Of a DNA stretch of 64,000 nt, positions 1 to 2,344 are shown one piece after another. Below the pieces are notes generated by a model that made no database searches, was not told the DNA's origin, and was given only the letters and a program-made list of their open reading frames with translations. Positions within the stretch are counted from its first letter, which is position 1. The number at the start of each line of letters is the position of its first letter. The DNA comes from Mustelus asterias (Eukaryota), in assembly GCF_964213995.1 (NCBI RefSeq), contig NC_135825.1, forward strand, positions 20,646,001-20,710,000, read 5' to 3'. Position numbers and translations under genes: made by a program.

Positions 1-251
1 TTTCGGTATCAACTCTTAGGGGGGAATTTTACCATTTTGAGTCTAAGTGCCGAATCCGGGCGTCAAATAGATCCGCGCCTGGAATCCTCTTTCCAGCGCG
101 CCCATACGCGTTTTGTCGGCTCCAGCCCGATCCGTGCGGTGGGCGGGGCTTAGCGCTGGCGGACCGATCGGAGCTCTGAACTGCGCATGCGCAGTTCAAA
201 AAAAATCTGACAGCGCGCCCGGGCGCAAAACAAAAAGCAGAAAGCGGAGAG

Positions 252-947
252 AGCGGCTCTCTGACGGTCATCCTCTGGTTTGGGGAGGGGGGGGGGGGAG
301 TGACGTCTCATCCTCTGGGGGGTGGGTGTGACCGATCATCCCCTGGGCGGCGGGGGGCGGGGAGAGGGGGTGTGACGGGTGTGACGTCTCATCCTCTGGT
401 CGGGGGGATTGGGGGGGGGCGGGGGGGGGTGGTCGGCTGCCTGTCTGCAGCCGATGCCTCCTGCCGGAGTGGACGTGCGGCCATGCCATCCCACAAAACC
501 TTCAGGATGAAGCGATCCTTGCTAAGAAGATGAAACAGAACCAGCCGATTCGACAGTGGGTCCGCATGAAAACCGGCTACAAGATCAGTACAGGTCCAAG
601 AGGAGACACTGGAGAAGGACCAAGCTGGGCCTGTAAAGGGATGCACCATCACTGGTACACTACCAGCCACAGATTACTCTTCCCTGCAGGGGCAAGAGAG
701 CGGGAGCGATGGCATGGCCGCACGTCCACTCCGGCAGGAGGCATCGGCCGCAGACTGACAGCGGAACCCCCCCCCGACCAGAGGATGAGACGTCACATCC
801 CCTCTCCTCCTCCCCCCCCCCCCGCAGGGGATGAGACATCACACCCCCTCCCCTCCCACCCCTCCTCCCCAGGGGATGAGATGTCACACCCCCTCCCCTC
901 CCACCCGCCTCCCACCCCAACCAGAGGATGACCTGGGTCAGAGAGCC
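252..947. repeat. Large internal inverted repeat (arms ~252-490 and ~708-947) with 4+4 copies of a GTGACGTCTCATCCYCTGG-like motif separated by G/C tracts
   Basis: Perfect 41-bp inverted core at 450-490 vs 708-748. Motif copies at 262, 300, 328, 381 (+) and 778, 825, 869, 921 (-). Confidence 0.9.
483..636 (+). pseudogene. RPL39: Intronless 60S ribosomal protein L39 (eL39) pseudogene
   Basis: Reads MPSHKTFRMKR(fs)LAKKMKQNQPIRQWVRMKTGYKI(fs)[15 protein letters not shown], matching eL39 [51 protein letters not shown]. Length is 154 nt, i.e. 156 minus two 1-nt deletions. No introns. Confidence 0.95.
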
Positions 948-2344
948 ATTGCAGTCTCTGACCCCGCTCTTTGGAGGCTGCAGCAGCGACTTCAGACTTT
1001 TATTTTGCAGGTCGCTAACAGTGCGGATGCGGAACGGGCCAGAAGTCGAAAAAGTGGGATTTGGCGGTAGAGTTGAGTGCGCGATGCATTAAGTCGATTT
1101 AAATGCATGCAAATGCATTTAAATCATCGGGCCACCCGATTCGGGCGCGGGTCGGGTCTCGGTAAAGGCGCGATCTGCTCGGATTCAGGTGCAGATCGCG
1201 TTAATGGCCCGACGCCCAACTTTACCGCGATTTCGCGCCTGAAAAAGGGCGCGAAGCTTTGGTAAAATCAGGCCCTTAATAGCAAGAAGGCAAAGTCCTA
1301 ATCAAAGCAAGTTCTACTGGGCCATAACGTCCTGGCTCCTCTGCATCACATTTGAGGGGGTACACAAAAGATGTGCTGAGGAGTCCCTCTTGGAAGTTTC
1401 CACGTAGGAATTTACCCGACAATTGTCCAGAGGGGCTAACTTCCTCTGGACAATTGTGCTGTAGTGGAAACCAAGCACCACATGGGATGCCCCCACACCA
1501 CCTTCACCCTATACTCCTCCACACCATGCCCAAACCCTGCCCTCCCCAGAGAATGCCCACACTCCCCTTCACCTGCCCCACCGCGGGCCAGGTCCAACTC
1601 CACCTCCCTAGCCCGATAGCTGAACCCCTACCCCCACATACCTTCTCTCTTTCAATAGTGCCTTTAAACACCTGCTTTATGGCAGCTGGTGCTGTAAAAA
1701 GGAGGTGAGCCTTTCCTCACTGCAGTCCATTTACACCATGTTAATGCACCCAGGGGCTCTCTTTGCTTCTCCTTTCTCACCCGACCTGGGGGAGGAAGGT
1801 TGGGCCAGACAGGAGCTCTGGTATTGCAGCAGAGGTAATCTGCCGGTGATTGCCACTCTGAGGAAATTACAAGCCTGTCGGCCCATACTGATTGAAACGT
1901 GAATTCAAGATCATTATTTACAGAAAAACTCAAATAAGCAACTTAGTAATCTGCAAAATACTAGTTTCACTTTCATAACAGATCTAAACATGGTTGACTC
2001 CCATTAATGGTTTGTGTTTTTCTAGCTTCTTACTTGTGCTGTTCTAGCACTTCTGAGACATTAATACATTTTGTGATTTATAAAATCAATTTGTTTCAGG
2101 AGAAACTACATTCTGGTTTAATTCCTCACTGTAGATGTTGTAGGTGTAACCAAATACAGTATTGCATAGTGTAGCCTATTGTCTTATTATTAATTGTCAT
2201 AATGGAAGAGGAACTGGAACCTGTTTCTATCCAGTTTTCGTTTCACAGTAGCCATTGTTGGTTATAATTAAAGTCTGATTTCCTCTCTCCTCAATAGCTG
2301 TTGGAAAGTAGGGTCCTCAGTGCAAAGTTTTGAATCTAATCACA

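Follow-up and report, generated by a model that had tools for sequence, protein, structure and literature searches.

To our knowledge, when DNA transposons duplicate host genes, they are assumed to copy them from DNA. The Helitrons of Myotis bats amplify four nested retrogenes, RPLP0 among them, to 118 copies in all (Thomas et al., 2014, PMC4224331); according to the accessible part of that paper, these are rolling-circle elements in which all four cases have poly(A) and LINE-1-type target site duplications (TSDs). For animal transposons with terminal inverted repeats (TIRs), the main survey of Pack-TIRs reports four multicopy cases in reference genomes, and the accessible portion of its main text contains neither 'Harbinger' nor 'shark' (Tan et al., 2021, PMC8277862). 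Because the pipeline of that survey removed intronless captures whose source genes have several exons, an RNA-derived class is missing from its count. Turmoil-1 of C. elegans is an autonomous Harbinger with nine copies, whose rsp-2 fragment retains an intron and for which a capture hotspot was tentatively inferred in the part of the paper available (Sela et al., 2008, PMC2572040). In maize and rice, Pack-PIF elements are described as acquiring sequence via neighbouring insertions that mobilize the DNA between them (Gisby and Catoni, 2022, PMC8903248). Outside transposons, induced breaks in mouse zygotes are reported to take up partial spliced cDNAs with microhomology and without poly(A) (Ono et al., 2015, PMC4516963); class 2 templated sequence insertions (PMC5110952) and RNA-templated repair in human cells (PMC12065846) have also been described.

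The window, by which we mean the whole 64,000-nt stretch of Mustelus asterias DNA analysed, holds near its left edge a dead copy of a non-autonomous PIF/Harbinger lineage. In this single shark lineage, four or more spliced messages have each been amplified. Like the bat Helitrons, it is a DNA transposon that carries and propagates spliced mRNAs, including a ribosomal protein message; unlike them, it is a cut-and-paste Harbinger with ~2,000 RPL39 copies, internal fragments, cDNA fold-back and no TSD at the junctions that can be read. With the Pack-TIRs, including Ssk-FB4, it shares host sequence in a TIR transposon, breakpoint microhomologies and a foldback carrier, and the model offered for them, gap-filling or template switching followed by transposition (PMC8277862), is akin to the one given below; in contrast, its cargo is RNA-derived, serial and high-copy, with genomic capture (introns kept) confined to one spacer from contig C20. 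It resembles Turmoil-1, as far as that description goes, in being a Harbinger with host fragments in both inverted arms (two gene fragments in Turmoil-1), but its cargo is spliced and its non-autonomous copies number in the thousands. The Pack-PIFs are likewise non-autonomous PIF/Harbinger elements with gene fragments, some in clusters of >100 copies, but they belong to plant genomes, and cDNA cargo is not mentioned in the text searched. Every single step has a precedent, but the serial combination and its scale appear new: the main texts of mostly open-access papers that we searched describe no vertebrate TIR transposon that amplifies spliced mRNAs.

The window element spans 19-1275 (1,257 bp) between TTA at 16-18 and TTA at 1276-1278, in agreement with the TTA-flanked element (19-1278) of the original prediction. 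An empty site exists: contigs of two other public runs (X9-19, X18-10) join the flanks and lack 1,260 bp, that is, the element plus one TSD, and a contig of run X1 holds the filled right junction. The element is also CpG-rich as had been described, with an observed/expected ratio of 0.77 versus 0.20 in the flank. Its parts are:

16..18, no strand: left 3-bp TSD (TTA), from flank sequence and empty site
19..34, plus strand: left TIR, a variant (GGGGGGA) matching the right TIR at 12 of 16 bases
19..250, plus strand: left end, common to the full-length partner element L223 (G000:C1:126090253-126095817), 81% over 200 bp
252..465, plus strand: left arm, made of G-rich ~45-bp minisatellite units and the arm core of the element
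466..482, plus strand: last 17 nt of the RPL39 5'UTR (exon 1)
483..636, plus strand: RPL39 coding sequence (CDS), spliced at 485|486 and 588|589
637..672, plus strand: RPL39 3'UTR, sense, ending at the fold-back junction 672|673
673..712, minus strand: RPL39 3'UTR continued for 40 nt, but read from the opposite strand (the asymmetric 'loop' of a palindrome)
708..732, minus strand: second, inverted RPL39 arm, a remnant only
733..945, minus strand: right arm, inverted arm core and minisatellite
946..1275, plus strand: right end, common to the family and the partner element, with the right TIR at 1260-1275
1276..1278, no strand: right 3-bp TSD (TTA), from flank sequence and empty site

The inverted arms that had been proposed do align (252-490 with 708-946), at 191 identities, 15 mismatches and 66 gap columns. 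Their inner parts are indeed identical at 41 of 41 positions, but 25 of these 'arm' bases (466-490) are RPL39 mRNA itself. RPL39 is part of the fold-back and not a cargo inside it, because 673-712 is the RPL39 3'UTR read backwards. Within the right end, a pair of perfect 13-bp palindromes (1096-1125) is kept across the family and could possibly serve as a binding site of the Myb-like protein discussed below.

Membership of PIF/Harbinger follows from several features. PIF/Tourist elements have short TIRs starting with GGG. The family's TIRs and TSD-bounded ends are reproducible from copy to copy, with 16-bp TIRs (majority form GGGCCCGATTTTACCA). In a mixed, non-random sample of 230 distinct end pairs drawn from all fetched loci, 151 pairs of a left end with the first right end had identical 3-bp flanks and 54 had one mismatch; shuffled pairing gave a mean of 11.8 and a maximum of 24, and identity over 4 and 5 bp was found in 1 and 0 cases. 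Over the 151 sites the target profile is palindromic (A-S-A-C-[WWW]-G-T-S-T), in keeping with a TWA-type palindromic preference, and TAA/TTA is the actual target at just 23 of them. The partner L223 measures 5,565 bp, has the same TIRs and a TAA TSD, and encodes a broken transposase (DDE_Tnp_4, E 3.5e-12) whose best named matches are 'putative nuclease HARBI1' proteins at 47-54%, the best of all coming from sawshark and sawfish. Its second gene, convergent and also broken, has moderate support as Myb/SANT-like: the first Atlas matches are Myb/SANT-like clusters at 0.91 and 10/10 family matches agree, although the frameshifted Myb-like piece itself has no Pfam match. By the features of PMC9179366 the lineage matches PIF/Harbinger, TIR length excepted, since the accessible text of that paper gives PIF/Harbinger TIRs as 25-50 bp, longer than the 16 bp of this family. 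In Foldback-type elements the long arms reach the termini; here the arms are internal and the outer 230 and 330 bp differ save for the TIR, so that the family behaves as a foldback in its centre only. We also observed an autonomous-type copy with cargo (L363, G000:C1:100761880-100765450, minus strand), in which the left end is followed by a 520-bp non-coding cargo common to long RPS19 elements and then by the Myb-like gene. Separately, an older and larger set of related Harbingers has the same left terminus (3,754 matches); the first 34 sampled, on G000:C1, held no RPL39, MRPL55 or OPA1 match of at least 25 nt.

The RPL39 gene lies at G000:C14 and has three exons. The window CDS (483-636) lacks both gene introns (1.7 and 5.3 kb), as predicted, and the captured cDNA is 5'-truncated, without the TOP tract. 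Two 1-nt deletions and differences from the gene at 13 of 209 positions bear out the damage described. Whether copies share the two frameshifts had been left as a question, and the answer is divided: the loss of G at the exon 2/3 junction (588/589) is family-wide, occurring in 98 of 136 arms, and the loss of T at 515/516 is private to the window among 16 aligned copies. Searching the 3.68-Gb genome with 483-707 yielded 1,360 candidates, of which the 40 scored comprised the window and 39 other places at 96%, many of these 40 having a second RPL39 match beside the first on the opposite strand. The spliced exon 1/2 junction (at most one mismatch) has 1,686 matches genome-wide, and the fold-back junction, present once per element, has 2,186; the backwards-read control gave 0 for each. 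The proposal of a vertebrate Harbinger family that captured and then amplified an mRNA-derived sequence is thus upheld, RPL39 being amplified genome-wide rather than present in this copy only. A single chance retrocopy was rejected since RPL39 junctions are found at many family loci.

In its family form, the cassette consists of the arm, 17 nt of 5'UTR, the CDS, 36 nt of 3'UTR and a 40-nt asymmetric centre where the 3'UTR continues on the opposite strand, followed by the inverse of the whole. The window copy is a deletion derivative of this palindrome that lost its second arm at a 6-bp microhomology, GATGGC. The same deletion junction occurs at two other loci, which have no private mutations in common with the window; we therefore rejected it as a subfamily mark. 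Such losses are common: at 40 loci taken in list order from the junction matches on C1, two full CDS arms are kept at 14, one full and one partial at 9, one only at 15 and two partial arms at 2, so that 26/40 no longer have both arms in full. An older subfamily has the unshifted CDS, one arm and a 630-bp spacer with 59 matches; 29 of 30 spacer loci examined carry RPL39, and the remaining one is the source locus of the spacer on C20. The intact exon 2/3 junction has 35 exact matches (33 in the family, the gene and one old retrocopy). The unshifted subfamily is precisely spliced at both junctions, and on this ground we rejected DNA-level intron loss as well as capture of the genomic gene. The resemblance of the shifted junction to the first bases of intron 2 is probably coincidental, because an element with old ends (L046) has the fold-back with an intact junction. 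Family copies are ~96% identical to the gene and diverge from their subfamily majorities by 2.3% and 2.9%. Contigs of runs under several other organism labels also cover the cassette, some with the fold-back joint, and the RPL39 capture therefore predates the insertion in the window. Two old ordinary RPL39 retrocopies also exist, 81-83% identical (L053, C13:19539652; L227, C9:30873812), and their sequences suggest that two of the differences between element and gene are ancestral alleles.

It might be asked whether selection kept and spread the cargos, as extra RPL39 genes or as hairpin RNAs regulating RPL39 or OPA1, a prospect to which we give almost no credence. The older RPL39 subfamily keeps its 51-codon frame open in 30 of 38 gap-free copies, and the 14 of 40 sampled loci with two full CDS arms are ~96% identical to the mRNA; against this, pN/pS in the open-frame subfamily is 0.75, with 5 stops among 166 changes, and the most amplified subfamily is frameshifted. 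Nor is arm pairing maintained, because arms within an element differ nearly as much (4.05%) as arms of different elements (4.35%; 30 elements, permutation p 0.0045). Ongoing conversion between arms was rejected on the same numbers, the within-element deficit being too small to explain maintenance. The cargo sequences thus give no sign of function.

Three further messages sit, like RPL39, between family ends with 3-bp TSDs: MRPL55, RPS19 and OPA1. All seven exon junctions checked are spliced, two each for RPL39, MRPL55 and RPS19 and one for OPA1, where both sides of a single exon were counted once. The source genes, for OPA1 one exon, are located elsewhere with no element flanking them. RPS19 gave 82 Pfam matches among 150 scored candidates; exons 3, 4 and 5 are joined between family ends at five distinct loci, and short fragments have family ends nearby at 16/16 loci examined. 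This cargo is an internal CDS fragment with both ends in the CDS, and its junctions match the parent by 2 nt and by 6 of 7 nt. OPA1 gave 120 matches among 117 scored candidates, many in inverted pairs, with 345 codons in one frame without introns; family ends accompany the 10 top loci and one more. Its gene was missed by two search patterns and found by a third as one exon, at both edges of which the element sequence proves to be spliced; the genome search did not recover the last OPA1 exon. OPA1 is attached to the left arm ~30 nt beyond its stop codon and runs antisense from the arm; in 5 of 6 long copies read it then turns back at an inverted CCATT, duplicating 4 nt (one copy, L273, has a 2.4-kb self-inverted stretch at 94%), before it rejoins the element at an RPS19 remnant. 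The antisense-then-fold-back order is as expected if the arm primed first-strand synthesis. Among 66 left ends of the youngest type (C1 list), 56 have mRNA-derived sequence, with 43 carrying RPL39, 10 OPA1 and 3 RPS19; 1 carries another cargo and 9 none of those tested.

MRPL55 has three exons joined, without the 12.0- and 6.0-kb gene introns. Its search returned 128 candidates, with 40 scored, all at least 94%, and it adjoins the family left end in 30/30 loci examined. This cargo is where we have to weigh the idea that LINE-made retrocopies entered family members by target-primed reverse transcription and lost their tails and TSDs before amplification. We regard it as a real rival, although an unlikely one, and it fits MRPL55 best: the copy is near full length, ends 15 nt past an ATTAAA, at the presumed poly(A) site, and joins an A-tract, an A9 that overlaps the element's own A-tract. 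However, both MRPL55 junctions survive without a TSD, and comparison with empty alleles shows 3-4 target bases lost and no duplication; no 7-20-bp TSD was found around this cDNA or seen at RPS19. For RPS19 and OPA1 the mRNA 3' end and poly(A) are absent in all copies read. RPL39 is equivocal, since its first 3' junction is unrecoverable, which a trimmed retrocopy would fit: 0/129 RPL39-bearing elements extend past position 273 of the mRNA model, the signal lying at 341. The original prediction had read significance into the lack of AATAAA, poly(A) and TSD around RPL39; AATAAA is indeed absent nearby, but the absence is uninformative on the capture route, as every examined copy has lost the 3' junction formed at capture. 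Family interiors lose sequence at microhomologies, and losses are frequent enough (26/40 loci) for trimming to have removed poly(A) and TSDs; beyond the family there are ordinary retrocopies of RPL39 and RPS19, and the nested retrogenes of the bat Helitrons (PMC4224331) are, in the text available, of the LINE-retrocopy kind. Yet the searches turned up only two RPL39 retrocopies that are not family members, with identities of 81-83% against ~96% for family copies, the family makes up an estimated 0.1-0.2% of the genome, and non-coding cargos have the same junction style as the mRNA cargos.

Such non-coding cargos recur, and three are folded back. The 630-bp one has its genomic source on C20 at 90-92%, with 2-3-nt microhomologies at its junctions; the source locus (L224, G000:C20:9424568-9429484) has since been interrupted by 4.3 kb of inserted DNA, with ~5 bp of overlap. 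A ~780-bp folded-back cargo lies beside an RPS19 remnant in L362, L376 and L208. A 330-bp cargo with inverted ends (L364, L383-L394; 68 candidates, 40 scored at 95% or more) has a 109-codon open frame for which no homologue was found. In L204 and L302, the centre holds a 560-bp cargo that contains an inverted duplication of 50 bp and directly follows the RPL39 5'UTR remnant; the tail of this cargo is presumably L2-like. Two more recurrent cargos, ~330 bp (L213, L215) and ~680 bp (L327, L330, L274), lie in the left part. Among reading frames of the other cargos, 43 and 7 in number, none reached a Pfam family at cut-off.

The C20 spacer shows that genomic DNA is captured in this family, and interiors move between family ends, as would be needed if the element had copied existing retrocopies from DNA by gap-filling or template switching, Pack-TIR style, with no RNA step. 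We nevertheless consider this very improbable for the mRNA cargos: a donor for RPL39 is lacking, its distal 3'UTR having matched only the gene and one 79% retrocopy, and the edges of the RPL39, MRPL55 and RPS19 cargos carry no donor flank.

Arranged in a tree of 69 rows, rooted at its midpoint and with several forks left open, the element ends form a ladder (two rows without a TSD-bounded element left out). Old and parent forms stand with the partner element, followed by forms with unshifted RPL39 and with MRPL55, then by those with RPS19, the 780-bp hairpin and OPA1, and last by the window's group of 20 rows (99/95). In parent forms the centre contains a hairpin whose loop measures ~10 nt. 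RPL39 with its fold-back is present under young ends as well as under old ones (L046), and because it is already found there, the younger ends probably acquired the cassette through template switches from one family member to another. The centre points left in 40 elements and right in 42, about 1:1, which indicates repeated inversion between the arms. The suggestion that the fold-back loop is a variable cargo slot needs revision: the centre does take other cargo, but RPL39 forms arms rather than loop content, and captures occur off-centre too, MRPL55 lying ~205 bp from the left end.

Taken together, what has to be accounted for is Harbinger mobility, the RNA origin of four cargos, fold-backs, microhomology deletions, inversion and amplification with a separate TSD for each copy. 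The account we favour, and hold to be reasonably probable, is that breaks inside the element were patched with RNA or cDNA, after which the new end snapped back and the product was transposed. GC-rich inverted arms would break or stall during excision repair or replication; the broken end would anneal via a few bases to cDNA, mRNA or genomic DNA and be extended; and the new 3' end would snap back at a short inverted microhomology, copying cargo and arm into a palindrome. Gap repair between family members would then transfer interiors between ends and flip the centre, and transposase supplied in trans would presumably amplify anything between intact ends. The likeliest reverse transcriptase would be a host LINE enzyme acting without its endonuclease.

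The junctions are compatible with such patching. Readable ones have short apparent microhomologies, some of 2-4 nt, or filler and no target duplication, a style that by analogy matches that of cDNA-patched breaks in mouse zygotes. As in the accessible accounts of zygote repair with reverse-transcribed products and of class 2 insertions, cDNA and genomic pieces are joined without poly(A) or TSD at short microhomologies; those events are single, induced or polymorphic, whereas the patched locus here is mobile, so each event is amplified. The 5' junction of RPL39 has ~35 nt of filler with an internal duplication, part of it matching the opposite strand of the arm, and ten candidate sources included no donor for it. 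Where the RPL39 sequence turns back, folding predictions place the foot of an RNA stem, but the junction misses a perfect switch by 2 nt. That stem is weak (z -1.5 for RNA, while a different one is predicted for DNA), and the perfect snap-back junction expected from it has 0 matches. Counting against break repair, the end of MRPL55 at a presumed poly(A) site with an A-tract fits LINE target-primed insertion as well. A more specific version, which we put forward tentatively and with some doubt, is that the hairpin-prone interior acted as a serial mRNA trap, in which germline mRNAs are reverse-transcribed directly from a broken end as primer, the resulting cDNA folds onto itself and transposase spreads the result. 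If that were true, the family would be a many-copy fossil record of germline RNA-templated break repair, and would represent a route to inverted gene duplicates without LINE endonuclease, with potential hairpin RNAs against RPL39 and OPA1.

Whichever route was taken, hundreds of junctions whose parents and empty alleles are known now allow tests of cargo acquisition by TIR elements and of whether repair from RNA templates can be inherited through a vertebrate germline. The ~2,000 RPL39-derived loci will distort counts of retrocopies and complicate both gene annotation and read mapping in these genomes, as will OPA1, MRPL55 and RPS19 with dozens to hundreds of loci. Several hundred near-perfect RPL39 inverted repeats, an estimate from the 14/40 loci, also offer a test of how vertebrates tolerate hairpins against an essential message. 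Two minor observations may be added. Family members are nested in one another at several loci (L117, L015, L198, L263, L264, L274), several within the first 30 bp of an end, and shortly downstream of the window element, at 1419-1457, lies a perfect 15-bp inverted repeat with a 9-nt spacer.
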